DNA of 38,305 nucleotides, from NCBI GenBank assembly GCA_030618495.1, contig JAUXDE010000002.1, positions 1 to 38,305 on the forward strand, in the 5' to 3' direction. The notes under the pieces are model-generated. The model was given only the letters and a program-made list of their open reading frames with translations. It was not told where the DNA came from and did not search any database. Shown here piece by piece: positions 1 to 29,185 of this stretch; the first letter of the stretch is position 1; each line of letters opens with the position of its first letter. The stretch is from Clostridia bacterium. Lineage in GTDB: Bacteria > UBA6262 > WVXT01 > JAUXBS01. The position numbers and the translations under genes were made by a program.

Positions 1-288
1 TGTAAAACTCCTGCATATCTTCACGGCATGGGCAAGCCCCAACGGGGCCTCCTGCCGGATATAGGTGACTTTTATCCCCCATTTTTTGCCGGTGCCAACC
101 GCCTTTTTGATTTCATCCCCCGTGTCTCCGATAACTATGGCAATATCGGTTATCCCGGCATCCCTGACCGCCTCTATGCCGTAAAACAATATCGGCTTGT
201 TTGCAACAGGAACGAGCTGCTTTGCATTAGTATGAGTAATAGGACGCAGGCGCGTACCCTTCCCGCCGCTTAATATTACTGCTTTCAC
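1..288 (-). CDS. Sugar-phosphate nucleotidyltransferase (RmlA-like, glucose-1-phosphate thymidylyltransferase family). Only the N-terminal 96 aa are present; the C-terminus runs off the window.
   Basis: Manual minus-strand translation from GTG at 288..286 gives [90 protein letters not shown]... It contains the G-G-x-G-T-R-L-x-P-x-T pyrophosphorylase loop. The start overlaps the stop of the upstream SDR gene (GTGA). It is absent from the supplied ORF track; the 28..273 plus-strand ORF is its shadow. Confidence 0.75.
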
Positions 289-1238
289 AGTTTCTCCCTC
301 CAATAGTTTAACAGGTCTTCGGCTGTCTTTTCAAAAGGTATTACGGGTTTCCATCCCGTGGCTTTACAGAACTTCCCATTATCACCCAGAAGGATCTGGA
401 CATCCGAAGGCCTCATCCTGGCAGGGTCATTTTCTACCTGAACCTTTACCTTTGACATGCCAAGCAGCATATCAAGCACTTCCTGTATGGAGTAATCCTT
501 ACCGGAACAAATATTATATGCTTCTCCATATTCACATTTTTCGGTAGACAACCAGTACGCTTTCACAATATCCCTTACATCCGTGAAATCCCTTCTGGCT
601 TCCAGGTTTCCTACACTCATAACCGGTTTTCTCATGTTTTTTTCAATCTCAGCTATCTGCCTGGCAAAATTGGAAACAACAAAAACCTCTCCCCTCCTCG
701 GACCGGTGTGATTAAACGCCCTGGTTCTCACCACTCTTGTTTTATAACTCCTGAAATATTGATATGCGAGCATGTCCTGCCCCACTTTGCTGACCCCGTA
801 CGGCGACAGGGGGCGCAATTGATTGGTTTCTTTTATCGGGACCTCGTTTTCCATTACCAGCCCGTATTCCTCGCTTGAACCCGCGATCTGCATTACCGGG
901 TCCGTGTTTGAATTACGTATTGCTTCAAATATGTTCAATTCTCCTATTATGTTAGTCGTTAACGTTTCCGCAGGCGCATGCCATGACGACTGAACGAATG
1001 ACTGCGCTGCCAGGTGGAATATCTTTTCCGGCTTAATTTTTTTTATCACCTTGTCAACCGACGAGGCATCACGGATATCACACTCGATTAATTCAATCTT
1101 ATCCTTTATATGATCAATGTTTTCCGTGTTACTCCGCCACCTTTCAATACCGTAAACCACAACACCCTTTTTGCTAAGCAAATATTCCGCCAGGTGACTG
1201 CCCACAAATCCCGTAATTCCTGTAATCAATGCTTTCAT
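285..1238 (-). CDS. NAD-dependent NDP-sugar epimerase/dehydratase (extended SDR, GDP-mannose 4,6-dehydratase/Rmd-like)
   Basis: N-terminal Rossmann motif [12 protein letters not shown] and catalytic YGVSKVGQD (Y-x-x-x-K). ATG at 1238 with AGGAG 9 nt upstream. Coupled to the downstream nucleotidyltransferase. Confidence 0.85.
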
Positions 1239-1270
1239 TTAATAGCGCTCCTTTTATAAAATGTTCAATA

Positions 1271-1299
1271 ATTTTATCAAATATGTATAATATTTACAA
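1271..1299 (-). promoter_or_regulatory. Candidate sigma70 promoter for the NDP-sugar gene pair
   Basis: The minus strand reads TTGTAA-17 nt-TAAAAT, about 32 nt upstream of the ATG at 1238. The context is AT-rich, so a chance match is possible. Confidence 0.3.
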
Positions 1300-1325
1300 G
1301 AAAAATGGCAATTGTTTCCATTTTT

Positions 1326-3641
1326 CTATTCAGTTAGTAATTCCCACTGAGTGTTCCAACTATCATCTACGGTGGGCCTGGTTCTTCTACCCGATACTCC
1401 GATTTTGGATTCAGGAATTACTTTTATATTGAATCTAAGCCACAGTTCCTGAGTTGTAGGCTTCATCACCCATTTAAGATTCACCTCCCAGCAGTGCAGG
1501 TCCCTGTAGATATTAATCTCACTTCGCACAAAATTACTGGCTCCGAAATCATCGGTAAACACATCTGCCCTTGTGCGAAAATCAAACCGCATCTTCCTGG
1601 TAAACCAGAAACCAAAATTATTGGTGATATCGATTTTATTGGGAGTACTGCCAAAATATTTGATATTATTGGTCCAGTACCAACCCTTCTTATCTTCCCT
1701 TTTGCTTAAGTTAGACCCGAAAGGAGTGTATATAAAGTTCATATCCAAACTCAAAGGCTTCCACAACACCTGCGCCGTGTCTTTGATGTCATAATAATAA
1801 TCCATATAGAATAACGAATTGTCTGTATCATAATTTATCTTGAGATGGATTTTATCAAGGTTTTCCATAAAATAGGTACACATTCCCGTAAGCGTTGGAA
1901 TTCTTACTTCATCTTTTATCGCAGGCAATGTCAACCCCGTAGTTACCACAGCCCCCAACTGCTTCTTTTTTCTCTTCTTACCCCTTAATGAATCCACCCT
2001 GAAGCTGAAGTTATTAGAGCTTGACTCATTCTTCTTCATATCCCAGGCAAACGTATAGTTCATTTTCACGGGCAGTAAACATACCATATTCAAATCCGAT
2101 GTCCATGTGAACCCACTGGTAAACGAATCCGACAGCTCATTTGTCTCCTCATCCCAATTCTGTCCGTACTTCATGTTCATGCCAAAAGTGTTTATAGTAT
2201 TAATATTGAAACTCGTTTCTAATTTCGCATTATCTCTTGCGGACAATTTATAATTATTACTATTTGTAGTATTATACTTGTTATCAATGCCGGCGCCCGC
2301 GCTAAAATAAACGGGGAATTTTGAAACACTGAATAATTTTATTTGATTCAGATTAAAACTGGCCGAGGGCAGGTGCCCGCCGCTCTGTTCAAATTGATTT
2401 GTTGTATCGTTCCACAGGTCCTTTCTTTCCGCAAACACCTTCATGCTGTAATTTGATTTCGTATATGAAAAAGCTATATCGGAGGATATGTTCCTCGTTA
2501 CCAGTTCCATTTCCTCCCTTGCCAGGTCTTCCCCTTTCTGATGACTTTGTTTTTGATTAACATCATTCTTGTTCATGTAGTTAACATTTGACTGCAGTTT
2601 CAAACCCGGCAGGCCCGGAAAATCCTGATTATGTTTAGCGTAAACATTCAGGTTATTCTCCAATTCACCCCCGATGGTCCTGTAGCCGTCATTACTTATA
2701 TGAAAGTTACCGTCTATGTATTTAGTTTTATACTTTTCATCCAAACTCACGCCATACTCCAACTGTTTTGCCGTAGATAGTTTAATATCAAGCATTCCAT
2801 CGTTTTTTGTAAATATAGTAAATGGAAGAAACGCCATCGCAAAAGGGCCATCCTGTGAATTATAACCTACTTCATAATTTCTGCCCTTCCAGCCCAGCCT
2901 TTCCATTTTCAAAGGTATCACGATTTTCGGGAATGGGAGAATGGGGGGAAGTAAGGGAATATTGCCAATCATTAAACTGACCCAGTTGAATATTAACCAC
3001 CTGTCAGGAATAATCGTTATCCTGGATGCCGCTAACCTGTAATGGGCGGGAAGCTTATCACAGGAAGAAGCATAGCCCCTGTACAGGATGAATTTTCCAT
3101 CCCCCTTCTTCTCCATCCTCGGTCCCCTGAAGTACCACTCTTCCACCCTGCAGTTGGCATTGATTACGGTTCCGTCTTTGGTGTCGAAATTATATGTTAT
3201 ACTGTCTCCGTATATTTCATAGCTGTCTTTTATCGAACAGTTGCCCCTCGCGTTAATCTCCTTTGCCTGGATTTTAATGTCTATCTCATCGCACTTGATA
3301 ATCGTCCCCTCATATTCAACTACCACATTACCCCTGGCATATAACCTGTCTTCCTCTCTAATGTACCTGGCATAATCAGAATTAAGTTTAATGGGAACAC
3401 CCGAAAGAATAGTTGAAGAACTTATACCGAATTCACATTCAATGTCTGACAATGCGGGAATCGTGGAAGGAACTACTTTAAACTTCTCTTCATTACCTCC
3501 GGAAACGGGATTCGTGGAATGAATTGCTTCGTATTTCTCTTCAGCGCCAAAAGCCTCCACAAACGGATAAAAGGCAAAAAAAACAGCTGTTATTACAAGA
3601 AGGGCTTTGGGGGCAGATCTCATTTTTTTTGGAATATTCAT
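1326..3641 (-). CDS. lptD: LPS-assembly outer-membrane protein LptD/OstA homologue
   Basis: Signal peptide (MNIPKKMRSAPKALLVITAVFFAFYPFVEAFGA). OstA-like N-domain (LYARGNVVVEYEGTIIKCDEIDIKIQAKEINARGNCSI...ITYNFDTKDG). SSCD...PAHYRLAASRITII...IGNIPLLPPILPFP junction typical of LptD. Long beta-barrel-like C-terminal part. Confidence 0.8.
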   Translation of the reverse strand: MNIPKKMRSAPKALLVITAVFFAFYPFVEAFGAEEKYEAIHSTNPVSGGNEEKFKVVPSTIPALSDIECEFGISSSTILSGVPIKLNSDYARYIREEDRLYARGNVVVEYEGTIIKCDEIDIKIQAKEINARGNCSIKDSYEIYGDSITYNFDTKDGTVINANCRVEEWYFRGPRMEKKGDGKFILYRGYASSCDKLPAHYRLAASRITIIPDRWLIFNWVSLMIGNIPLLPPILPFPKIVIPLKMERLGWKGRNYEVGYNSQDGPFAMAFLPFTIFTKNDGMLDIKLSTAKQLEYGVSLDEKYKTKYIDGNFHISNDGYRTIGGELENNLNVYAKHNQDFPGLPGLKLQSNVNYMNKNDVNQKQSHQKGEDLAREEMELVTRNISSDIAFSYTKSNYSMKVFAERKDLWNDTTNQFEQSGGHLPSASFNLNQIKLFSVSKFPVYFSAGAGIDNKYNTTNSNNYKLSARDNAKLETSFNINTINTFGMNMKYGQNWDEETNELSDSFTSGFTWTSDLNMVCLLPVKMNYTFAWDMKKNESSSNNFSFRVDSLRGKKRKKKQLGAVVTTGLTLPAIKDEVRIPTLTGMCTYFMENLDKIHLKINYDTDNSLFYMDYYYDIKDTAQVLWKPLSLDMNFIYTPFGSNLSKREDKKGWYWTNNIKYFGSTPNKIDITNNFGFWFTRKMRFDFRTRADVFTDDFGASNFVRSEINIYRDLHCWEVNLKWVMKPTTQELWLRFNIKVIPESKIGVSGRRTRPTVDDSWNTQWELLTE

Positions 3642-17532: not shown

Positions 17533-18063
17533 ATGCTAAAAAAAGATATCAACGCCGAGCATGAAGGAATTCTTGATATTGCGAACCTCATATGTATTGC
17601 AGCCCGTACCGCGCCAAAGGGTAAAGGTGTGGATAATATAGTCACCGCCATTGCAACTGAAAAAGATAAGGAAGAAATCGCCCGAAAAATGAAATCAATC
17701 GGCGAGAAAAACGGCAACAAGACCTTCCTGAGGGATTCGGACAATATCAACCGGGCGCAGGTTATCGTAATCATCGGCACCAAAACAAATCCTCTCAAAC
17801 TGAAACTCTGCGGTTTCTGCGGATTCAAGGATTGTGATGAAATGGAAAAGAACCGGGGAATTTGCGTTTTTAATTCAGGGGACCTGGGAATCGCAATAGG
17901 TTCGGCAGTCTCAACCGCCTCCATTCATAAGGTTGATAACCGTATCATGTACACGGTTGGATATGCAGCCCTTGAGATGAAATTACTTGGAGATGACGTG
18001 AGGATTGCCTACGGAATTCCACTTTCGGTAACCGGCAAGAACATCTTTTTCGACAGGAAATAA
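17533..18063 (+). CDS. DUF2148-family ferredoxin-domain protein
   Basis: AARTAPKGKGVDN..., CGFCGFKDC cysteine cluster, DLGIAIGSAV, NRIMYTVGYAALE, GIPLSVTGKNIFFDR. AGGAG SD upstream. The stop codon overlaps the outer arm of element A copy 2. Confidence 0.8.
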   Translation: MLKKDINAEHEGILDIANLICIAARTAPKGKGVDNIVTAIATEKDKEEIARKMKSIGEKNGNKTFLRDSDNINRAQVIVIIGTKTNPLKLKLCGFCGFKDCDEMEKNRGICVFNSGDLGIAIGSAVSTASIHKVDNRIMYTVGYAALEMKLLGDDVRIAYGIPLSVTGKNIFFDRK

Positions 18064-18162: not shown

Positions 18163-19137
18163 TTAGAACTTGGCGGTAACTGAGAACCTGTGAGTAAACA
18201 AGTCCAGCACGCCGTAAGAAACCCACGCGTAATCAATGGCGAATTTCTCCAGATTAAAACCCGCTCCTACGGACAAACCTGAAAGGAAACCTAAATCGGC
18301 AAGGGTCGTTGTTTTAAATCCCGCCCTCACCGCAAACAACTTGGTGATGTAGTACTCTCCCCCGAAATGCAGGTTAAGCTCGTTATCGGCAGGCATGTTG
18401 ACATCTGCGCCAACGGTAAAATTACTTTCCATATCCTTGTACGCAATACCCACTTTTATGTTAAACGGCAAAGCAGCCTCCACTCCCGTAAAACTATCCG
18501 GTCCGCTGAAACTGTACCCCGCTCCTATGTTCTGGACTACCGCCCCGGCAAGGATTCCCTTGCCAAATTCCACCCCCTCTGATGCAAAGTGAACTCCGGC
18601 ATCAAAAGCAAGGCCTGTTGCCGCGTAACCGCCTCCGGCAATATTTTCAACCCCGATACCCTCATAAATCAATTTAACGCTTGCTCCGACACCGAACATC
18701 CCAAACTTCATGCTGAAAGCGCCGATACCCGCCAAATTGTTCGCTCCAAACAGGTAATCTGCCGTATCGGTATCACCTGTCCTCGCCTCCAGTCCTCCAA
18801 GGGTAACGTAAGACGCCCCCACGCCAAAAGCCATATTCTCGCCAATCGGCATCCCGAAAGCCGCAAAATCATGGTTGATGCCCTGGAACAGCATCATGTA
18901 AGAACCTGTCAACTGCATCCCGCTCATGCGGCACAGTCCCGCAGGGTTCCAGTAAAGGGCATTGATGTCGTCCGCAATACCCGCGAACACCTCCCCCATA
19001 CCAACGGCGCGCGCGCCTACCCCGAGTTTTAAAAACTGGGCGCCCAGCGTCCCCGCATTTACATTTATCTCCGCGCCCACAGGGTTTGCAAGCGCCAGGA
19101 TAAGCCCGGCAATTATTACAATTGTTTTCTTATTCAT
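18163..19137 (-). CDS. PorV/PorQ-like (UPF0164-type) outer-membrane beta-barrel protein
   Basis: Signal peptide, then GTLGAQFLKLGVGARAVGMGEVFAGIADDINALYWNPAGL, which I recognise as the family signature. Gly/aromatic-rich alternating strands and a terminal Phe (TAKF). AGGAGG lies 8 nt upstream, and the gap after the giant gene is 21 nt. Confidence 0.7.
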   Translation of the reverse strand: MNKKTIVIIAGLILALANPVGAEINVNAGTLGAQFLKLGVGARAVGMGEVFAGIADDINALYWNPAGLCRMSGMQLTGSYMMLFQGINHDFAAFGMPIGENMAFGVGASYVTLGGLEARTGDTDTADYLFGANNLAGIGAFSMKFGMFGVGASVKLIYEGIGVENIAGGGYAATGLAFDAGVHFASEGVEFGKGILAGAVVQNIGAGYSFSGPDSFTGVEAALPFNIKVGIAYKDMESNFTVGADVNMPADNELNLHFGGEYYITKLFAVRAGFKTTTLADLGFLSGLSVGAGFNLEKFAIDYAWVSYGVLDLFTHRFSVTAKF

Positions 19138-19158
19138 GAGTTCTTACCTCCTATTATA

Positions 19159-22100
19159 CTACTGGCTTCTCAATAATGCAACCTTTTTAATTATTTCCGT
19201 TTCACCCATCTTTATATAACACATATATATTCCGTTAGCCACATAACTACCGCTTTCATTTTTCGCATCCCAGGTCGCCCTGTAAACATAACCGCCGGGC
19301 ACCGCAATTTCACTAAAAGTATCCCTTACGAGTTCTCCTGCAAGGTTATATATCTTTATATCAACACTGACATTGCTTGCCGAACCGGGAGGAATCCTGT
19401 ATTTTATAGTAAGCGGAGTTTCAGTTGTCGGATGGAACGGGTTCGGGTACACCCACATCTTGTAATCTGTGTCGGAATACGCAACAGTCACCTGGTTAGA
19501 AAAACCGCTCATGTTGGGTGTCGTCGCATCATCCACCGCCTTTACCGCAAAGTACGGACCTGTAACAATAGTAACTATATAACTGTGTGTGGGCGCCGTT
19601 ACCGTAGCAAGGAGTGTATAATAACCGCCTTCATCAGGGTTCGATGCCTCCACTGAGGACTGGTGGACTTCATAGTATTTAATATCGCTTGCTTCACTCT
19701 CGTCCCAGTCAAGTTCAACACCACCGCCCCCCGCTATTTTATTCGCGCTTAATTTCGGTTTTGCCGGAGCAGTCTCATCGGCGAATGCCGCGTACTTGGT
19801 GAAGTGCGACACGTCTACCGATATGGTGTTGTTTTCACTATCAATTGTCCTGCTGGCCTTCTCCTTTACCCAGGTAGCGTTGTCCTCATCATAGTAATTG
19901 ATATCTAATTTACTCACGGGTACGGTGCTTGCGCCCATATCATATTCAACAGTAACTTTCGAAGTTTCACCTTCCGCTAACTGCGCCAGGGGTCCCGTAA
20001 CAAGGTATATTTCCATGTTATAAACCGAACTGAGCATTTCACCCGGGGCGCCGCTTGCCTTGACAGCAAGGCTCGGTACGATAAACGAATACGCGCTCAT
20101 GCTCTTCTTCATTACCCCCAGAGCGCCGACCTCATCGGGATCAATACTCGCAATGAATATCTTCAAACCCGTAATATCCTCCACGTCTTCGCCGTCGACC
20201 GTCACCTTCGTTCCCATCGGCAGGTAAAAACCGGATGCATTGCCCTGCCCTATAACAATGTTGCCGCCGGTAACGGGATTAATATATTCTTCGTTCCTTC
20301 CCTTTTCACCGGTGTATATAGTAAATACTTTTGTGGACAGTTGCCCTTTCAGGTCATGCCCTGTTACCTGTATCTTGAATTTGTCTTCGCTGGCGGCGGC
20401 ATACTCTGCGCTGCACTCTCTCCTGTCATCGGATAAAATCCTTCCGCTCAACGTCCCCGCCCCTTCTGTAAGAGTAATGATATCCGAAGCGTTTCTTTCA
20501 GCCAGGGGTTCATTGCTCCACACGTCGATTTCGAATACGTCTCCTGTTTTCCTTTCAGCCTGTACAATGAACTGAGGAGGATTATCGGTATAGATAACGC
20601 CTTTTGTTATCGTATCGGTAGGACTGCCTACCGCGAAACTCACCGTGGCGGTATCAATGAATACATCCGCCTTTCCCTCTCCCACGAGAGCAATATAATA
20701 GTTTATGCCCTCCTCCAGTCCTTCAACGCTGTAACTTTCGATCTCGTTGGTCGTGCTGTTGCTGTTAACCGTACCGAATACAAACCTGCTGAAATCATTT
20801 GTAACCGCCACGACTTCCCGCACATCCGACGTATTTATCTTCTTTCCGTACTTGTCAACAATGGACCCCTGCACCTTCTTTCCCGTTACAAGCTGTATCT
20901 CACCAAGGCCGGTGGCCCCGTTGACTGTAATATCGGCAACATGGGTTTTAAGGCCTTTTGAAAAAACCTTCAAAACGTAATCATTCGCAACAATGCCTTC
21001 AATCAGGAAATCACCGTCATAATCGGTTATCTGCTCTATGCCACCCATGGGGTCATTGTATATCTTGCCCTTCTCCTGCAGGAGCACCATCGCGCCGGGC
21101 ATGTCGTTTCCCATTTCCTCAAAAGGCAATGTCAGCGACTTGCCGCCCGAGGGAGTAATTGTCCCCGATAGGCTGGCGTTCGCCTCGCTGAGAACGAAAT
21201 TAACGTTCTCTGATTTTGCCGTAACGTTACTCCTGGATTTTTCACCGTAGCCGGATATTATACCCTCCGTCCATTCGGGCCTTACCGCGGCATAAACGTC
21301 CCAGTACGTTATATCTTCATTAATACCTTTAATCGTATAATAACCTTTTGTATCGGTCTTCGCCTCCAGACGGACTGTTTCACCGTGATGCGATGCGGGT
21401 TCCGCGGACATCCTGATATTCGCAATCCCCGTACCACCTGAATCTTCAACCTTGCCTGAAATTGTTGAACCTTCCTTTAACTTAATAGTCCCGAGGTCAA
21501 TGTCCTCCGCGTTATCAGGCACGGTAATCCCCGCAATCAGCATGCCGGCGTAGTTTTTGTACTGAGCCGCAAAACCGTACATATCCTCCTTCTGCCCGCT
21601 GACCCTCACGACATAGGTCCCGGCAGGCAGGTTCTCTAACCTGAATTCACCTGTTGTTTCATCTATTTTTCTTTCATTGTCCCACTGCTCGGTATGCCTG
21701 TAACTCCCCTCAACCCAGGGCCTTGCCTCGCAGTTTACGGTCATGCCGTTTATGCCGCTCACCGGCTGTCCTGTCTGGCTGTCAACAAGCCTCCCTTTTA
21801 TGTTTGCGCCTTTACCAAGCAGAATTGGAGCAACCGACACATCGCTGCCCGTAACGGACACTTCTTTTGCCACCTCTTTGTAGTTATTTGACCAGACCCT
21901 TACTATGTATGACCCCGTGCTGACCGGGCCGAGAGTAAAGTATCCTGTCCTGTTGGTCGGCTGAGACGAAAAATCAACCCAGTAACTTGAAATGCTGTCC
22001 TTATTGTACCCCGCGCTGAACAATTCAATATTCATCCCCTCCGAACCTGTCAGGGGCCTATTCACCGAACCCGATATACTGTAACCGTCCGTCAGGTAAA

Positions 22101-25100
22101 GGTCTACATTAGCCGCCTCCCCCGCGTCTACGGTCTTAACTTCCGCCTTGCCCGCCATTTTGCCTGAATCAAGATTAACCGGGGGCCTGACCACGTAAAT
22201 CCCCTTATCAAGTCCGCTGACGCTAAATGTTGCGGAGCTTTCACCGACAGGCGTCAGGGGCGCCATGTAATATGCGTTTGTCATGTCCATCCAGTCCATC
22301 TGTTTAGGCATGACTTCTACGAACTTCCCGGTAAGCTCAGTAACAGCAGTTCGTAATGGTGTAGTTGAAGAACTGATATAAACCGTACCTGAAATCGAAG
22401 CGCTGGTATATAGACTTAGAATTCCCGCATTAAAGTCAGCGTCGTTGGTAACCCCGACCATCTTACTCAGGGTGGCAAAGTTACCGTCCGATATACCCAT
22501 GTAATTTGACGTGCCTGGCGCTACATCATACTGGTTCACGGACAGCATGTATTCCCCGGTCCCCAGATTCTCAATTTTAAACGTTCCGGATGTAGAATAT
22601 ATAGTCGTAAGAGACTCAACCCTCATACCGCCCGTCATACCGCCTGTAACCGAAACCCTAACTTTGGAAGGAACACATTCCTCACCCGTAATAATACCGT
22701 AAACAGAACCGCCAAAGGCCTGCAAGTCTATAACCGCAGTATTAGTTGGAGCGGTTACTATGTAAGGCCTGACGGCCATTTCAAAACCCTCAAGCCATGT
22801 ATCAATGTAGTATTGGGCTCCATTAATTAATCCGCTTATTGTCCAGGTACTTACAGGTAAAGTTATGCTGGTTCCCGCACCATGATTTTCCCCGGGTGAC
22901 CATGCATTTATCCATAATGAACTTCCCGGCGTTCCTCCGTTTATCCCTCCTGAAATAGTGCCACCTTCCGAGAATGCATAGGTCCCGAGCGTCACGTCAG
23001 TCGTCCCGATATCAACGTCATAATTCTGTTCCGCGTAACCGTCGGCGTGCAGGTTAAGCTCATAGGTGGTGCCCGGAGGGACATCGTGTATCATAAAGGA
23101 TGCCGTGTTAGTTGAAGCATATATCTCTGTGCCGCTATACGCATACTTCATGTCGGCATCGTTCTTTAAATTAATATTAACGTACACGTTGTTGCCCACA
23201 TCCTCTACGGGTATCTGCACGGTGCCGCTTACAATAACGTTCCTATCAGTTCCTCCAATGGTAAAGTCCTTTGTTGCGCCGTAGGAAGTAATCTCCACGT
23301 TCTGCGCAACCTGGAGCGAGTATCCGAACAATTCGACCTCAACCCTGTAGAATCCGGGCGGCAGAGATATTTTATACGTTTTTAAACTCTGGCCGCTCAC
23401 TATCTGGAAGTTCGTAAACCCATAATTTCCCGTTGTCTCATCCCAGGCGTTGACGTGCCCCCACAACTCGTTGACAGAATTACCCCACTGGTCAGTATAA
23501 GCTGTAAACGGCGCCGGCAGGGTAATGGTTCCCGTGAGTTCCCCACCCTTGTTAAGGATAATATCAGGAACCTGTTTCGTGGTTTCGGCCGCGCCGTAAA
23601 ACACTCCCGGTTCATCATGAGGCTCGTACCCGTCTTTTTCCACGTGAATATAATAATTCCTGTCCTTGGGAACGCCGCTTATAAAATATTTTCCGCTGGA
23701 ATCCGTGTACGCCTCCCCAAAATAATCGTGCGTCCCCGCCTCAACCCTGGCGGTTCCGACAGGCGAGGTGGTACTGCCAACCATCTGGTATATCCATCCG
23801 TAGAGTCCCGGGATATTGCTGTCTATTGTTACGGTTAAATCAGTGTTGGATTCTCCCAGGTAAGCGTTATCCCAGTACGATGAATGACATATTTGGATCT
23901 TAACATCATAGTCACCCGAAGGAAGCACATTCCAGGAATTATCCCTCCCCTCCCACATAATATCAATATACTTCGTGCCGGTCGGTTCGTATCCTATCCA
24001 CCAGTCTGTAAACCAGTCCTTCTGAGCCACTATTGCATCCAGTTCCTCGTAGGTAAGTTTCTGGACGGGCGTCCCGTACCACGGATTGCCCATATTGTCC
24101 CAGGTAACATCATCCCAGTTAAACACCTCAAAAGCACTGTCCCTGTTGGTATCAATGACAACCCTTACAATGGCTCCCGAAAAGTCCGCTGAAGTGGGTA
24201 TATCATTCATCGTGAAACTAATATTGGCAAAGTCCTTAATGTTATCACCGTCGGGCGTTATTGTAACCGTCGTGGATGAGGTGTCGATTCCGTTGTAAAC
24301 CGTAACATCGGTCCCCAGCGTCAGTGTGCCCGAAGTTTGGCTCATAAGAAAATCATCTATAACATACTGAACGGCTGTTGAGAAATATATATTGTAATTG
24401 GGCATGTTCACAATATAGCCGTCCTTCTTCACCTTGACAAAGTAGGGATAGGACTCTGACTGGGGGTAAATCCCGTGAATCTCGAAGTTGTAACCGGGCC
24501 CCAGGTCGGTACCGGATGAAACCGTTGAAGTACTGAAAGTATGGTCAGCCGTATCCCAGCTGTTATTCGAATCCCAGAGTTCCACCGTAACCCCGCCCAT
24601 AGGGATACCCGGAGAGGCAGAGTCCTCCACCTTGCCTCTTAACGTACTTGGGTCAGTCACCACGGGGTCAGAGACGCCGAAGTACACGTAATCCATGTTG
24701 TTCCCGGACAGGTTAATTTCACACGCGCCTTCCATCCCGTCTCCTCCGGCGCCGCACTTATAGACGCCGTAGGGTTCCCACGGGTCTCTTTCATCGTTGC
24801 TGTTATTGTCAATGAAAGCGCCGAGGTAATAGATACCGTCCACCAACCCGTTTATCATGTAAGTGCCTGAGTACATACCTGTTGACACATACAATGTGCT
24901 GTCAGTGCCGCCTTCCACATATGCCTCCGCAAAAGACGGGTCGGAGAATACCCCGATTTTTACATCGTACGTCGGCGTTGCAGATGAAGGAGTTTTGTTG
25001 TAATAAACAGTGCCGGATATTGACCTGTTACCCGTTGGGTCATCAAGTGTCACGTCAATGCCGTACATCTCCCCCTGAACGTATATGGAGGTGTAATCAT

Positions 25101-27351
25101 CGCTGTTCTCAAAGAACCTGCCCATAGGCTCGCCGTCATCAAGAATATAGTTGTTGTTGGTATCCATATAGGTAACAACATAGTAGTTTTCCCCGGTTTC
25201 GGTAGGTCCAAGCCAAACGTTGTCTATCGTGTATCCTCCCACGGCATGTATCATCGTAGACGATTCGGGATCTCCCGCGGGGTTGCCGTTGGCATCCAGG
25301 TTCAGGAAGGCTCCAACGTAAATATCTCCGCTGAATTGCGTACCGCTGTAATAAATGGTACCGTTTATCTTTCCGTAGCCTCCCGCGCCGCCCGCGTAAA
25401 TATTCACGCCAGCCTCGGCCGAATTGCTCGTTGTAAGCCCGTCCGTTTCTGCGATAACCATCGCGTATCCCGTTGTGTTCTTTGAAAGCAGTTCTATGGT
25501 AGCTATACCGGCAACAGTGGCCACAGGATTTGTTAGATTAATAAACTCCGCGCACTCGTTGAATAGAACAAGCCCCTGTTCCCCCATAATCAGTTCCACG
25601 TTCACGTAATCAACATTCATACTAACAGAAGGGTTATCGATACTGAACAGCACCTTCAATATCTCCCCGGGAACAAGGTAATCCCCGAGAGTCCCCGGAA
25701 AGAATTCAAAATTATAGGTTGTCGGTGACATGTCAAACATATTGTTGCTAACGGTTTCCCAGTTACCAAGGGACTCTTTCCATACGCTGACTGTGAAAGG
25801 CGCCGACGATATAGCCACCCATGCCGTTATGGAAATTTTCACGCTGTCCACGCTATTAAGATCTATCGGTTCATAATCAAGATCAAAATCTGTCATGAAG
25901 AACGCATAGTCGCCCACTCCGGCGAAGACTTCAAAATCCTGACTGTCATTAATCTGTTCAATCAGCATGGTTCCGGCGGGGTTAGAAAGCATGACATTAA
26001 TCTCATTCGGAGGAGGCAGCGGAGGATTGATATTAATACCTGGCGAGTGAAACGCTTCATTATTCCCGTACTTGAAATCAAATATCATGCCGCTCTCGGT
26101 GAGCACTTCTATGCCTGTATAGTCAATCTTTATGGGACGGCCTTGCTCGTCCGCTTCAAACACTACGTCAATGGTTCCTCCGGTTAAATAATTTGAGATA
26201 TTTGTGTTAAGTTCAACTTCATAATCACCGAATTCATAGTTAATATATATCGGACTGCCTATAACATCATAAGTACCCCCGTTCCATGCATATACGTTTA
26301 CCTTTAAATCACTCACGTTATCGGTGGCGGCCCTTATGAATATTCTTATCTTCATTATATCGGGAACGTTTTCCGCAATGTTGTTATACTGCGCCCTGAA
26401 CGCGGAATACATGGCCGGAGTCCAGCCTGTATCCCACTGGTAGCCGTCAACTTCCATTATATCGCCGGTCGGTACATTATTATTGATTTCACCTTGAGCT
26501 ATGGGCGGTATGTTCGATAATGACATCGTGTAATACGCCCAGTGGCCCGTATCCATGAAATCGTAGACGTTCCCGAACTCACCACCTTCCCCGCCGCTTT
26601 CGGAGACCGACAGTTCAACGTAGTTCACCTTCAGCCCGTAACCCGGGTTCTCCATCACGTACAGTAATTCCATCCTTTCATCACCGTCATGGTACCAGAT
26701 ATAATCGGCAAAGTTAGCAAGGTTCACAGCATCCTTGGTGAATGACTGCTCCTCGTAACCGAGAAGCATGTTATCGGGTGTTATTTCGTCCCATGCGCCT
26801 GACTTATTATATGCATAAATTATCAACCTGCAGTTACCCTCGGGACACTTGCCCGCGAACTTCGCCTGTATGCTGACTATATTGGATACATTCTCCTCAA
26901 TCACAAAACTCGCCTGGAAGGCGGAGTAATATCCTGACATTTTATAAATATCCAGCATCATGGCATCGTCCATTTTTACCTTATCAACCTCAACAGGCGG
27001 AACTTCAAAGGTCACCATATCGACAAACGTCGGGGGGATAGAGTCCAGTTGGTTATCAGAATACGCCATGTGCATGAGGGCGTCATTGAAGTTATAAACA
27101 TGCGGCCCGCCGCCCGGGCCTGAAGTACCGAGACTGAAGTAAACATCCTTTGTAGCAGTTATATCAACCTGGCCACCCGCATCATAGATGGTTGCTGTAA
27201 TTAATGAAGTACTCATGCCGTCAGCCAGTATGCCCGTAGGGCTTGACTGAATGACTATATAATCATTGGCGCTTACCCTGCCCGCACAAAAAAATAAGAC
27301 AACGGTAAGAAGAAAATAAAATAATATGCCCTTAAATTTCATATCTTTCAT
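19159..27351 (-). CDS. Giant (2730 aa) secreted multidomain surface protein. Domain order: signal peptide; split Ig-like domain with three ~170-aa repeats; an array of carboxypeptidase-regulatory-like beta-sandwiches; FN3; T9SS-type C-terminal sorting domain.
   Basis: Uninterrupted 8.2-kb ORF. GGGAGG lies 6 nt upstream of ATG 27351. Signal peptide ...FFCAGRVSA. Many G-x-[IV]-x-D/G...G-x-Y beta-sandwich units (e.g. IKGRLVDSQTGQPVSG...GEFRLENLPAGTYVVRV). FN3-like PAKPKL...VELDWDES...YYEVHQS. The last ~97 aa read VYPNPFHP...IKIYNLAGELV...WDAKNESGSYVANGIYMCYIK...KKVALLRSQ. Confidence 0.9.
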   Translation of the reverse strand: MKDMKFKGILFYFLLTVVLFFCAGRVSANDYIVIQSSPTGILADGMSTSLITATIYDAGGQVDITATKDVYFSLGTSGPGGGPHVYNFNDALMHMAYSDNQLDSIPPTFVDMVTFEVPPVEVDKVKMDDAMMLDIYKMSGYYSAFQASFVIEENVSNIVSIQAKFAGKCPEGNCRLIIYAYNKSGAWDEITPDNMLLGYEEQSFTKDAVNLANFADYIWYHDGDERMELLYVMENPGYGLKVNYVELSVSESGGEGGEFGNVYDFMDTGHWAYYTMSLSNIPPIAQGEINNNVPTGDIMEVDGYQWDTGWTPAMYSAFRAQYNNIAENVPDIMKIRIFIRAATDNVSDLKVNVYAWNGGTYDVIGSPIYINYEFGDYEVELNTNISNYLTGGTIDVVFEADEQGRPIKIDYTGIEVLTESGMIFDFKYGNNEAFHSPGININPPLPPPNEINVMLSNPAGTMLIEQINDSQDFEVFAGVGDYAFFMTDFDLDYEPIDLNSVDSVKISITAWVAISSAPFTVSVWKESLGNWETVSNNMFDMSPTTYNFEFFPGTLGDYLVPGEILKVLFSIDNPSVSMNVDYVNVELIMGEQGLVLFNECAEFINLTNPVATVAGIATIELLSKNTTGYAMVIAETDGLTTSNSAEAGVNIYAGGAGGYGKINGTIYYSGTQFSGDIYVGAFLNLDANGNPAGDPESSTMIHAVGGYTIDNVWLGPTETGENYYVVTYMDTNNNYILDDGEPMGRFFENSDDYTSIYVQGEMYGIDVTLDDPTGNRSISGTVYYNKTPSSATPTYDVKIGVFSDPSFAEAYVEGGTDSTLYVSTGMYSGTYMINGLVDGIYYLGAFIDNNSNDERDPWEPYGVYKCGAGGDGMEGACEINLSGNNMDYVYFGVSDPVVTDPSTLRGKVEDSASPGIPMGGVTVELWDSNNSWDTADHTFSTSTVSSGTDLGPGYNFEIHGIYPQSESYPYFVKVKKDGYIVNMPNYNIYFSTAVQYVIDDFLMSQTSGTLTLGTDVTVYNGIDTSSTTVTITPDGDNIKDFANISFTMNDIPTSADFSGAIVRVVIDTNRDSAFEVFNWDDVTWDNMGNPWYGTPVQKLTYEELDAIVAQKDWFTDWWIGYEPTGTKYIDIMWEGRDNSWNVLPSGDYDVKIQICHSSYWDNAYLGESNTDLTVTIDSNIPGLYGWIYQMVGSTTSPVGTARVEAGTHDYFGEAYTDSSGKYFISGVPKDRNYYIHVEKDGYEPHDEPGVFYGAAETTKQVPDIILNKGGELTGTITLPAPFTAYTDQWGNSVNELWGHVNAWDETTGNYGFTNFQIVSGQSLKTYKISLPPGFYRVEVELFGYSLQVAQNVEITSYGATKDFTIGGTDRNVIVSGTVQIPVEDVGNNVYVNINLKNDADMKYAYSGTEIYASTNTASFMIHDVPPGTTYELNLHADGYAEQNYDVDIGTTDVTLGTYAFSEGGTISGGINGGTPGSSLWINAWSPGENHGAGTSITLPVSTWTISGLINGAQYYIDTWLEGFEMAVRPYIVTAPTNTAVIDLQAFGGSVYGIITGEECVPSKVRVSVTGGMTGGMRVESLTTIYSTSGTFKIENLGTGEYMLSVNQYDVAPGTSNYMGISDGNFATLSKMVGVTNDADFNAGILSLYTSASISGTVYISSSTTPLRTAVTELTGKFVEVMPKQMDWMDMTNAYYMAPLTPVGESSATFSVSGLDKGIYVVRPPVNLDSGKMAGKAEVKTVDAGEAANVDLYLTDGYSISGSVNRPLTGSEGMNIELFSAGYNKDSISSYWVDFSSQPTNRTGYFTLGPVSTGSYIVRVWSNNYKEVAKEVSVTGSDVSVAPILLGKGANIKGRLVDSQTGQPVSGINGMTVNCEARPWVEGSYRHTEQWDNERKIDETTGEFRLENLPAGTYVVRVSGQKEDMYGFAAQYKNYAGMLIAGITVPDNAEDIDLGTIKLKEGSTISGKVEDSGGTGIANIRMSAEPASHHGETVRLEAKTDTKGYYTIKGINEDITYWDVYAAVRPEWTEGIISGYGEKSRSNVTAKSENVNFVLSEANASLSGTITPSGGKSLTLPFEEMGNDMPGAMVLLQEKGKIYNDPMGGIEQITDYDGDFLIEGIVANDYVLKVFSKGLKTHVADITVNGATGLGEIQLVTGKKVQGSIVDKYGKKINTSDVREVVAVTNDFSRFVFGTVNSNSTTNEIESYSVEGLEEGINYYIALVGEGKADVFIDTATVSFAVGSPTDTITKGVIYTDNPPQFIVQAERKTGDVFEIDVWSNEPLAERNASDIITLTEGAGTLSGRILSDDRRECSAEYAAASEDKFKIQVTGHDLKGQLSTKVFTIYTGEKGRNEEYINPVTGGNIVIGQGNASGFYLPMGTKVTVDGEDVEDITGLKIFIASIDPDEVGALGVMKKSMSAYSFIVPSLAVKASGAPGEMLSSVYNMEIYLVTGPLAQLAEGETSKVTVEYDMGASTVPVSKLDINYYDEDNATWVKEKASRTIDSENNTISVDVSHFTKYAAFADETAPAKPKLSANKIAGGGGVELDWDESEASDIKYYEVHQSSVEASNPDEGGYYTLLATVTAPTHSYIVTIVTGPYFAVKAVDDATTPNMSGFSNQVTVAYSDTDYKMWVYPNPFHPTTETPLTIKYRIPPGSASNVSVDIKIYNLAGELVRDTFSEIAVPGGYVYRATWDAKNESGSYVANGIYMCYIKMGETEIIKKVALLRSQ

Positions 27352-27397: not shown

Positions 27398-27426
27398 AGT
27401 ATACCCTATCATCTATATATTGTCAA
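27398..27426 (-). promoter_or_regulatory. Near-consensus sigma70 promoter of the giant gene
   Basis: The minus strand reads TTGACA (27426..27421)-17 nt-TATACT (27403..27398). The predicted leader is about 40 nt and ends in GGGAGG-6 nt-ATG. Confidence 0.5.
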
Positions 27427-27595: not shown

Positions 27596-29185
27596 ATGGT
27601 TACCAGGAAAGATTTAAAATTTATTGTCATTATAGCATTTTTCATTATAGCGCAGTTACTCCCGTATATTAACAAACCCTTTCATATAGATGACCCGTTT
27701 TACCTTGAAATGGCAGAACAGATAATTCATGACCCGGTAAGGCCCTACAGTTTTTCAATAAACTGGAGCGGTGAACTGAGAAACGTCTGGTCACACATGG
27801 AAGCGACCTTCCCTCCTTTGATTCCTGTTTACATGGCTTTAATAGCTGTTATACTTGGAATAAATGAAATCATCATGCACTCGATGTTCCTTGTATTCCC
27901 CGTAATCGCGGGAACATCAATGTACTTTATTTCAAAAAGGTTCGGGGCGCCCCCGTTGATTTCATCGCTTCTTATGGTATCAACGCCGGTGTTCCTGGTA
28001 ATGTCCACTACACTCATGCTTGACGTCCCGCTGCTCGCCTTCTGGCTGTTATCAACCGCCCTGTTCATAAGCGGTGTTGATAATGATAACAAGACACTTC
28101 TGTTGCTGGCATCGGTTTCCATGGGTATCTGCTCCCTTGTCAAGTACACCGGGCTGCTGCTCTTTCCCCTTCTTTACCTGTGGCTTTTCCTTAACGGAAA
28201 TGCCAGGAGGTACCGGGCATGGTTTCTTCCGGGACTCACGATATTCCTTGCCTGGTGCATTCACAATCTTATAATTTACGGCGATATCCATTTTCTGCTG
28301 GCAGGCAGTCATATCGGCAAGGAAATATCAATACATAAAGCATTGAGTTTACCCGTATTCTTTTCCGGGAGTTTGGTATTCCCGTTTTCAATCTTTTTTT
28401 GTCTTGATAAAAAACACAAACCACCTGCCGTAATCATCGTTTTGTGCTTATTCCTGTTTTCATTAATCGCTCTATTTCACAAAATGCATTTCATACTGTT
28501 ATTTACCTTGCTTTCTTCATCCGCCCTGATATTTCTTTACCGGATATCCTCCTCCTTTAAAAAAGAGCCTGACACGATATTTTTATTCGTGTGGCTTTCG
28601 ATGGTATTACTGGTTAACTTCATAACGGAACCCTGGGTGGCTGCAAGGTACCTGATATTATGCATACCCCCTGCTGTAATCCTGTTCTTGAGAATAATTA
28701 AATCCATCAAGAAACCTTTGACAAACCATCTAATCATCCTTACGGTTATCGTAACCCTGGTTTCCGGCCACCTTCTTTGTTACGCTGATTATATCTGGGC
28801 GGCGGCTTACAGGGAATTTGCGGGATACGTACGGCAAGAAGGGTATAACAAAGGCTACTTCACGGGTCATTTTGGCCTTCAGTATTATCTTGAGAAGGCG
28901 GGGATGAAGGCGTTTGAAACACACAGGGAGGACATTGAAGAAGGAAGCTATTTCATAACCGCAACCCTGCCCGACCCGCAGAAACCAAACGACAAACTGC
29001 TCCGCAAATTAAGAATCATCGAACACAAATCGTATGAATCACGGTTCCCCGTAAGAATAATGAACCCCGCGGGCAGGGCCGGTTTCTATTCAAGTTTCTG
29101 GGGTATCCTGCCCTTCGGCATTTCAAAAAAACCGCTTGAGGACTTCTACATATTCCGGATTCAGGCGCCGGACACCGAGGAATAA
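27596..29185 (+). CDS. GT-C fold membrane glycosyltransferase (family 39, ArnT/PMT-like)
   Basis: About 12 predicted TM segments. The first periplasmic loop has the acidic motif PFHIDDPFYLEMAE, typical of GT39/ArnT-like enzymes. C-terminal soluble domain of about 130 aa. Confidence 0.75.
   Translation: MVTRKDLKFIVIIAFFIIAQLLPYINKPFHIDDPFYLEMAEQIIHDPVRPYSFSINWSGELRNVWSHMEATFPPLIPVYMALIAVILGINEIIMHSMFLVFPVIAGTSMYFISKRFGAPPLISSLLMVSTPVFLVMSTTLMLDVPLLAFWLLSTALFISGVDNDNKTLLLLASVSMGICSLVKYTGLLLFPLLYLWLFLNGNARRYRAWFLPGLTIFLAWCIHNLIIYGDIHFLLAGSHIGKEISIHKALSLPVFFSGSLVFPFSIFFCLDKKHKPPAVIIVLCLFLFSLIALFHKMHFILLFTLLSSSALIFLYRISSSFKKEPDTIFLFVWLSMVLLVNFITEPWVAARYLILCIPPAVILFLRIIKSIKKPLTNHLIILTVIVTLVSGHLLCYADYIWAAAYREFAGYVRQEGYNKGYFTGHFGLQYYLEKAGMKAFETHREDIEEGSYFITATLPDPQKPNDKLLRKLRIIEHKSYESRFPVRIMNPAGRAGFYSSFWGILPFGISKKPLEDFYIFRIQAPDTEE

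Follow-up and report, generated by a model that had tools for sequence, protein, structure and literature searches.

A predicted giant surface protein with a type-A-like sorting domain is encoded next to a PorV/PorQ-family barrel in a lineage outside classic type IX secretion biology

The analysed window, a stretch of 38,305 nucleotides (nt) covering positions 1 to 38,305 of contig JAUXDE010000002.1, contains on its reverse strand a gene for a giant protein of 2,730 amino acids (aa) ending in a type IX secretion system (T9SS) C-terminal sorting domain (CTD), and directly downstream of it a gene for an outer-membrane beta-barrel of the PorV/PorQ family. The linkage of CTD gene and barrel gene is conserved, directional and highly non-random among related loci. 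The pair is best read, with some reserve, as a surface protein together with its cognate outer-membrane carrier or anchor barrel, the CTD being recognised, left uncleaved and kept bound to the barrel. The original prediction had proposed a pair dedicated to secretion or anchoring, and of these roles of the barrel anchoring or carrying is better supported than secretion.

The two genes and the elements belonging to them are the following:
19159..27351, reverse strand: giant cargo gene, coding for a predicted secreted, beta-sandwich-rich surface protein of 2,730 aa
19162..19452, reverse strand: type-A-like CTD of the giant (aa 2634-2730), with a PNPF start and the strings IKIYNLAGELV, NGIYMCYI and IIKKVALLRSQ
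19138..19158, reverse strand: intergenic spacer, 21 nt between the stop codon of the giant gene and the ATG of the barrel gene
19147..19152, reverse strand: Shine-Dalgarno sequence AGGAGG, 9 nt ahead of the barrel ATG
18163..19137, reverse strand: barrel gene, coding for a 324-aa PorV/PorQ-family outer-membrane beta-barrel with FadL fold and terminal Phe
27398..27426, reverse strand: promoter-like site TTGACA-17 nt-TATACT, matching 11 of the 12 consensus positions (a consensus match alone), 47 nt upstream of the giant ATG

The giant and barrel genes look like a self-contained two-gene operon because of the 21-nt gap with its Shine-Dalgarno sequence, the lack of any terminator-like site in this spacer, the promoter-like site in the 244-nt divergent intergenic region upstream of the giant gene, and the opposite orientation of the two neighbouring genes, which are both on the forward strand (17533..18063 for a DUF2148 protein, 27596..29185 for a PMT_2 glycosyltransferase). 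The coordinates and peptide strings given for the giant in the original prediction were confirmed, as was the barrel gene 21 nt downstream behind AGGAGG.

The CTD of the giant was recognised by several models. Residues 2634-2724 pass the T9SS type A sorting domain model TIGR04183 with 33.9 bits against a cut-off of 23 (E 2e-8). Among the Pfam models, FlgD_ig reached 34.1 bits (cut-off 27) and Por_Secre_tail (PF18962) 21 bits, below its cut-off of 27. When the last 130 aa were scanned alone, the scores were 43.1 bits for the CTD region of the PorZ model, 34.6 bits for that of PorU and 25.1 bits for the generic model. The domain carries also the glycine motif of the Lbeta3-beta4 loop (in IKIYNLAGELV) and last-strand lysines (in IIKKVALLRSQ); this glycine motif and such a lysine have been shown experimentally to matter for translocon recognition in Porphyromonas gingivalis (PMC11285876). 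A single-sequence AlphaFold2 (AF2) model of the CTD has seven strands with a mean pLDDT of only 59, and the top Foldseek match of this weak model is PorU 6za2 (E 8e-4). Neither the type B CTD model (TIGR04131) nor the PorP/SprF model (TIGR03519) was among the NCBIfam matches of the window pair at E ≤ 0.1, and the type B signal was limited to a weak Pfam CHU_C match (19.5 bits against a cut-off of 27).

The barrel has a signal peptide at aa 1-22, read from the sequence without a predictor, with cleavage between MNKKTIVIIAGLILALANPVGA and EI. It passes the PorV/PorQ family model NF033709 with 161.8 bits against a cut-off of 90 (E 3e-47, profile positions 3-326 of 326) and the Pfam PorV model with 28.9 bits against 27. 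All equivalog cut-offs were missed: PorQ NF033711 gave 92.9 bits against 220, PorV NF033710 74.9 against 250, and PorV2 NF052325 61.6 against 325. The predicted PorV/PorQ identity thus stood at the level of the family, and judged by these models the barrel is neither PorV, PorQ nor PorV2 itself. A profile of 35 family members matches the solved Flavobacterium johnsoniae PorV (6h3i_F) with E 1e-36. The AF2 model of the barrel (pLDDT 86.8, pTM 0.82) has a helical segment near its N-terminus (aa 33-70) and after it about 14-15 strands, and its best fold matches are the PorV chains 8gl6_F and 6h3i_F (TMq 0.71-0.72, E 7e-14), with TodX/FadL next. By analogy with FadL, the helical segment probably plugs the lumen of the barrel.

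Two close relatives keep the pair. At locus L001 the barrel is 68% identical, the gap is 20 nt, and the orthologous giant of 2,750-2,766 aa shares 71% identity over 2,651 aligned residues. The other locus, L083, was the one addition from a metagenome scan for close relatives; there the same CTD tail ends 10 nt ahead of a barrel with 64% identity. For a wider survey, a genome collection with one genome per species was scanned with the barrel alignment, and the best 80 loci of at least 573 relatives were analysed; the assessable barrels numbered 82, from about 75 genomes, with approximately 20 kb covered per genome. The sample included Elusimicrobiota/Endomicrobia, Poribacteria, FCPU426, Sumerlaeota, Aerophobetes, Nitrospirota, TA06 and WOR-3 as well as unlabelled and 'Clostridia'-labelled metagenome-assembled genomes (MAGs); the phyla of the Fibrobacterota-Chlorobiota-Bacteroidota (FCB) group were represented by Ignavibacteria, Bacteroidota, Gemmatimonadota, Zixibacteria, KSB1, Cloacimonadota and Krumholzibacteriota.

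With a local iterated profile, a CTD was found at the end of 54 of the 68 same-strand genes directly upstream of the barrels (79%) and in 50 of the 580 other genes of the loci (9%), an enrichment with an odds ratio of 41 (Fisher p 2e-36). Preferential linkage of PorV-like and CTD cargo genes in related genomes had been set beforehand as a test by which the original prediction could be refuted, and the linkage was upheld. Curated models applied to the last 130 aa of the upstream genes agreed, the PorZ CTD region matching 47/61, TIGR04183 38/61 and the PorU CTD region 37/61; the consensus of the 61 barrel-partner tails, IxIYxxxGxLV ... KxAxI, keeps both CTD motifs. Altogether a CTD gene immediately precedes 51 of the 82 barrels on the same strand, including 11/17 in Elusimicrobiota, 5/7 in Poribacteria and 4/5 in 'Clostridia'-labelled MAGs, and the median gap between CTD gene and barrel is 12 nt (55 pairs). 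The order is polar: only 4/34 genes directly downstream of the barrels have a CTD, which is close to the background rate.

The cargo bodies upstream of the barrels fall into at least 27 unrelated groups besides one conserved family of 22, with a subtilisin-like S8 protease, an FN3 protein and giants of 2,200-3,300 aa among the examples. At a Desantisbacteria-type locus the gene of a giant exceeding 4,685 aa, whose CTD is a textbook one, ends 49 nt ahead of the barrel. Several pairs can occur in one genome. The genome of the closest relative has at least a second pair, L032, in which the barrel is 31% and the CTD 24% identical to those of L001, and 7 kb of locus L004 accommodate two pairs whose barrels share 42% identity. 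Over 55 pairs, the identity of the barrels correlates with that of the CTDs (Spearman 0.55, Mantel p 0.001; 0.47 without the close orthologues), which, as a comparison of sequences, fits with pairs that are inherited and diverge as units. Of the predicted dedication of the barrel to one cargo, the conserved linkage of the pair was supported, though not as a universal rule.

The 22 members of the conserved family, CTD-bearing and mostly 940-1,195 aa long, are encoded directly upstream of barrels in Ignavibacteria, Bacteroidota, Kryptonia, Gemmatimonadota and Poribacteria (L071 6399..9965, L037 6956..9934, L036 6983..9991 and 19 others), and the family looks like a conserved module common to FCB phyla and Poribacteria. 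The upstream proteins of about 1,000-1,190 aa in Ignavibacteria, Bacteroidota and Poribacteria were considered as PorU and rejected, as the three members scanned had no NCBIfam or Pfam matches. At L017, L025 and L033, three unrelated loci, uvrA instead of a CTD gene directly precedes the barrel, a neighbourhood that may recur but is probably incidental. Other large open reading frames (ORFs) near the barrels included one with a partial BamB-like match, one with a choice-of-anchor B domain and three without match. SprA, PorU and PorKLMN were not seen in the scanned ORFs flanking the surveyed barrels.

The barrel family is large, with 9,262 clusters (50% identity) at E ≤ 1e-30 and 43,140 at E ≤ 1e-3. 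Ten partner barrels from various phyla matched at the family level only, usually closer to PorQ than to PorV and below the PorQ equivalog cut-off. On these scores the barrels appear to form a large third group beside PorV and PorQ. Many PorV/PorQ-family barrels are 450-714 aa long and have an additional C-terminal extension (L023, L028, L029, L032, L034, L045, L064, L072, L077 and L082). The L032 barrel (661..2616) is extended by a TPR-repeat array that weakly matches YfiO/BamD, and the barrel homologue P0045 carries an OmpA domain. The extensions suggest periplasmic tethering, recalling the PorE/PorP arrangements.

The reading of the barrel as a carrier or anchor is based on the finding that the barrel-linked CTDs are closest to PorZ's and PorU's CTDs, which are never cleaved. 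The profile of the barrel-linked CTDs matches PorZ 5m11 with E 9e-15 and PorU 6za2 with E 1e-8, and the CTDs of released cargos captured in the SprA-PorV complex with E 2e-3 (8glj_D) and 0.03 (8glk_D). By these profile matches, the domains resemble most the uncleaved, barrel-bound CTDs. The CTDs of PorU and PorZ are retained and bound by PorV and PorQ, respectively (PMC12365241, PMC11285876, PMC10202324), and it has been hypothesised in a review that cognate PorV-like barrels shield CTDs from cleavage (PMC10202324). Type B cargos, too, remain on SprF-like carriers encoded directly downstream (PMC12618676).

According to the mechanism proposed here, the giant would cross the inner membrane by Sec, and its CTD would then be recognised by the extracellular face or loops of the co-expressed barrel. 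Staying uncleaved on the barrel, the CTD would tether the giant non-covalently to the outer membrane, so that the beta-sandwich stalk of 2,600 residues, with its unannotated head, would be displayed on the cell surface. Binding, retention and display are all suggested by sequence and by analogy with the solved systems. The crossing of the outer membrane needs a separate explanation because in the solved translocon SprA forms the pore and PorV only carries the CTD (PMC10994853); the giant might use an SprA-like translocon encoded elsewhere or some not yet described route.

Several observations weigh against a dedicated carrier or anchor. The surveyed loci are phylogenetically non-independent, and the correlation between barrel and CTD identities, a mirror-tree measure, is confounded by shared phylogeny. 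Approximately 38% of the barrels have no adjacent CTD gene, as in a Firestonebacteria locus (L084) with the barrel alone, and the surveyed flanks contain 50 CTD genes that have no barrel of their own. In some clusters several CTD genes precede a single barrel, and runs of three or four same-strand CTD-bearing genes surround one barrel at L043 (3..9955), L040 (10881..16689), L074 and L050, so a single barrel may in some cases serve more than one cargo. About 65 residues of F. johnsoniae PorV (PorV 238-321 corresponding to window 234-253) are missing from the window barrel, whose loop architecture, and hence mode of CTD binding, may differ from that of PorV. Also the likeness to non-cleaved CTDs is a likeness of sequence profiles, in which longer CTDs may score higher regardless of cleavage.

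The barrel could instead be a general PorV-type shuttle of a complete T9SS-like machine (SprA, PorKLMN and PorU) encoded elsewhere in the genome, with the giant as an ordinary cleaved type A cargo and the adjacency reflecting co-expression as in porU-porV. The two motifs for translocon recognition in the giant CTD (PMC11285876), the fold match to PorV from SprA complexes and the many CTD genes without their own barrel, which imply a shared export route, are in line with such a shuttle, and a window of 38 kb leaves room for T9SS genes outside it. The explanation is nevertheless unlikely, since the PorV equivalog score was far from its cut-off and lower than the PorQ score, the closest relative's genome holds at least two diverged barrels each with its CTD gene, L004 has its two pairs within 7 kb, and the linked CTDs look like the non-cleaved ones of PorZ and PorU. 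The flanks of the surveyed barrels were also free of PorU, SprA and PorKLMN in the ORFs scanned, and according to published reports T9SS structural genes are lacking beyond the FCB phyla as well as from Poribacteria (PMC11285876, PMC3909097).

If, on the other hand, the two genes formed a self-sufficient minimal two-partner-like module, as the original prediction had suggested, the barrel, alone or as an oligomer and perhaps through a FadL-like lateral opening, would both export and hold the giant without a T9SS. Tight polar coupling in many phyla without known T9SS (PMC3909097), the very large size of the family and the lack of other dedicated export genes in the window would agree with this. 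It is still quite improbable: the barrel is small (about 300 mature residues, approximately 14 strands), its lumen is probably filled by the helices of aa 33-70 as judged from FadL, its nearest structures PorV and FadL/TodX do not translocate proteins, and PorV in the solved system carries the CTD while SprA is the pore (PMC10994853). Pfam and NCBIfam searches of the giant and the barrel found no POTRA, Omp85 or two-partner secretion (TPS) domains, and the sorting element is C-terminal and not N-terminal as in TPS. Least probable, and already disfavoured, is an incidental adjacency of a FadL/TodX-like channel for hydrophobic substrates, or a BamG-like BAM accessory, with a protein ending in a generic FlgD-type Ig domain. 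For this would speak the higher Pfam score of FlgD_ig than of Por_Secre_tail, the presence of TodX/FadL and Bacteroidota BAM components (9hiv_F, 9n2d_B) among the fold matches, and a weak NCBIfam BamG match (E 0.023). The 41-fold enrichment of CTDs with strict polarity across unrelated cargo bodies and phyla argues against it, as do the strictly C-terminal position of the CTD with its T9SS motifs and the wide lead of PorV over all other sequence and structure matches of the barrel.

A further reading, possible but doubtful, is that a CTD and a PorV-family barrel form an ancient standalone system of surface display, possibly of export, in diderms without SprA and PorKLMN (Elusimicrobiota, Poribacteria, Desantisbacteria-type, FCPU426 and the source lineage), from which the attachment complex of Bacteroidota (PorU-PorV, PorZ-PorQ) would be derived. 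If true, it would answer a question open since 2014, namely how TIGR04183-tailed proteins reach the surface without Por structural genes. Anchoring by cognate barrels as in PorZ-PorQ and SprB-SprF is suggested as a general, possibly ancestral mode, and the barrels are concrete candidate partners for the 'orphan' CTD proteins of Poribacteria (PMC3909097). The carrier or anchor reading predicts that reporters tagged with a CTD are retained at the surface if, and only if, the barrel is co-expressed. In practice, the pairing offers a rule for predicting surface-exposed giant proteins of uncultured diderms.

The body of the giant is built like a surface fibre of the adhesin or S-layer kind, as far as its sequence can tell, with the following parts:
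27268..27351, reverse strand: predicted Sec signal peptide (aa 1-28), read by eye, with cleavage between ...CAGRVSA and NDY
27130..27252, reverse strand: weak bacterial Ig-like domain of the Invasin_D3 type (aa 34-74), 23.1 bits, below the cut-off of 33
23782..27129, reverse strand: family-less region of about 1,100 aa (aa 75-1190), without match in Pfam, PDB and homology searches
20902..23775, reverse strand: array of CarboxypepD_reg / prealbumin-like beta-sandwiches (aa ~1193-2150), PF13620 with 89.4 bits in total over at least five stretches

The N-terminus of the giant is hydrophobic with an AxA-like site, and the putative cleavage, as read from the letters, falls between MKDMKFKGILFYFLLTVVLFFCAGRVSA and ND. 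The CarboxypepD_reg array would form a stalk-like region, and aa 75-1190 are presumably the functional head. The homology search with the N-terminal 1,190 aa gave zero matches, missing even the known orthologue, and is hence uninformative. The giant had no sequence matches in PDB, no internal repeats by blastp and no recognisable catalytic domain in the Pfam and NCBIfam scans.

Beyond the pair, the 38-kb window contains no T9SS core genes (SprA/Sov, PorK/L/M/N, PorU or PorZ), as had been claimed, with the window and not the genome as the scope of this result. The other sizeable ORFs are housekeeping or unrelated genes: a GDP-mannose-dehydratase-like NAD-dependent sugar dehydratase/epimerase, a ROK kinase, folC, accD, a trpB-like gene, hisI/A/B, murA, prmC, prfA, tyrS, PBP1A, a B12 radical-SAM enzyme, PPDK and glyQS. 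Nearly all genes of the window are on the reverse strand, and the GC skew is persistently negative (about -0.2) with a monotonically falling cumulative skew; because of this strand bias and skew the window probably lies within one replichore with its genes co-oriented with replication. Two further genes of the window were noted:
27596..29185, forward strand: PMT_2 (GT-C) membrane glycosyltransferase, transcribed divergently from the giant gene
1326..3641, reverse strand: LptD candidate ORF of 771 aa, with a signal-peptide-like start and without a Pfam or NCBIfam family

A divergent PMT_2 gene adjoins also the orthologous giant in L001 (5..1576, reverse strand). The glycosyltransferase might be a candidate for periplasmic glycosylation of the giant, the association being tentative.

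The placement of the source lineage outside classic T9SS biology, put forward in the original prediction, was supported. The GlyS protein encoded in the window has a 73% match on the contig bearing the orthologous pair (JAUXBS01, GCA_030619245.1), followed by a MAG group with 55-65%, and at most 45% identity to named phyla (Elusimicrobiota 45%, Clostridia 42-44%). The relatives of the barrel are from Elusimicrobiota, Poribacteria, Desantisbacteria-type and similar lineages. For the 771-aa ORF the sole lead is that its residues 98-230 weakly match the N-terminal part of LptD (7omm_A, E 0.017). The source lineage is deep-branching and uncultured; its outer-membrane barrel and this weakly LptD-like ORF make it probably a diderm. 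If the ORF is a divergent LptD, the organism would be a diderm with lipopolysaccharide, contradicting the 'Clostridia' label of the closest relative. In view of these diderm signs, and of a GlyS no closer to Clostridia than to Elusimicrobiota, the name 'Clostridia bacterium' given to the closest relative's assembly is probably not reliable.

The individual domain assignments and the concept of a cognate barrel holding a CTD are already known, and the NCBI annotation already calls such barrels 'PorV/PorQ family protein' in these phyla. The original prediction took as its premise that a PorV-type barrel gene as a rule has no cargo gene beside it. The porU and porV genes of P. gingivalis, with the consecutive tags PG0026/PG0027, are presumably adjacent. 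The CTD-bearing PorU is bound to PorV (PMC12365241), and the locus tags are PG0026 and PG0027 (PMC5562754). Directly behind a type B CTD cargo gene there is typically the gene of its cognate PorP/SprF barrel (PMC12618676). Both porU-porV and the type B pairs were overlooked in the premise, which was therefore not retained. Published descriptions restrict T9SS to Bacteroidota plus a few FCB phyla (PMC11285876) or report it from Bacteroidetes only (PMC4793230). In Poribacteria, TIGR04183-tailed proteins were reported without Por structural genes being found, their secretion pathway being one that 'remains to be revealed' (Kamke et al. 2014, PMC3909097). These poribacterial proteins resemble the giant as CTD surface proteins in a phylum without found T9SS genes, and five of the seven poribacterial barrels surveyed here are in pairs of CTD gene and barrel; they differ in that no barrel partner was reported (PMC3909097) and in that the window organism is not a poribacterium.

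The closest counterparts are PorZ-PorQ and PorU-PorV of P. gingivalis, in which an uncleaved CTD of the type A class is held on the surface by a FadL-fold barrel of the PorV/PorQ family (PMC12365241, PMC10202324), as proposed from sequence for the window pair. The linked CTDs are nearest to those of PorZ and PorU, and the window barrel belongs to the same NCBIfam family. The window cargo differs as a beta-sandwich giant of 2,730 aa without a C25 peptidase or a PorZ body, and the window genes are translationally close in one operon, come from a lineage outside Bacteroidota/FCB and include a barrel scoring below the PorV and PorQ equivalogs. SprB-SprF and Fjoh_3952-Fjoh_3951 of F. johnsoniae, both type B, share the arrangement of a large surface-protein gene followed by its own carrier-barrel gene and the occurrence of several diverged pairs in a genome, and there the carrier is the final anchor of the cargo (PMC12618676, PMC9143113). 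The window pair has instead a type-A-like CTD (TIGR04183) and a PorV/PorQ-family barrel, and no match to the type B CTD or PorP/SprF models. The best sequence and fold match of the barrel is F. johnsoniae PorV (6h3i, 8gl6), with a co-linear alignment over window residues 5-233 and 22% identity. In F. johnsoniae, a single general PorV is described as recognising every type A CTD (PMC12618676), whereas the gene of the window barrel stands beside one cargo gene. No paper describing PorV-like barrels paired with type A CTD genes, or linking PorV to Elusimicrobia, was found in the open-access literature. What is new in comparison with these systems, as assigned by sequence models, is a type-A-like CTD with a PorV/PorQ-family barrel of its own, recurring in phyla outside FCB.

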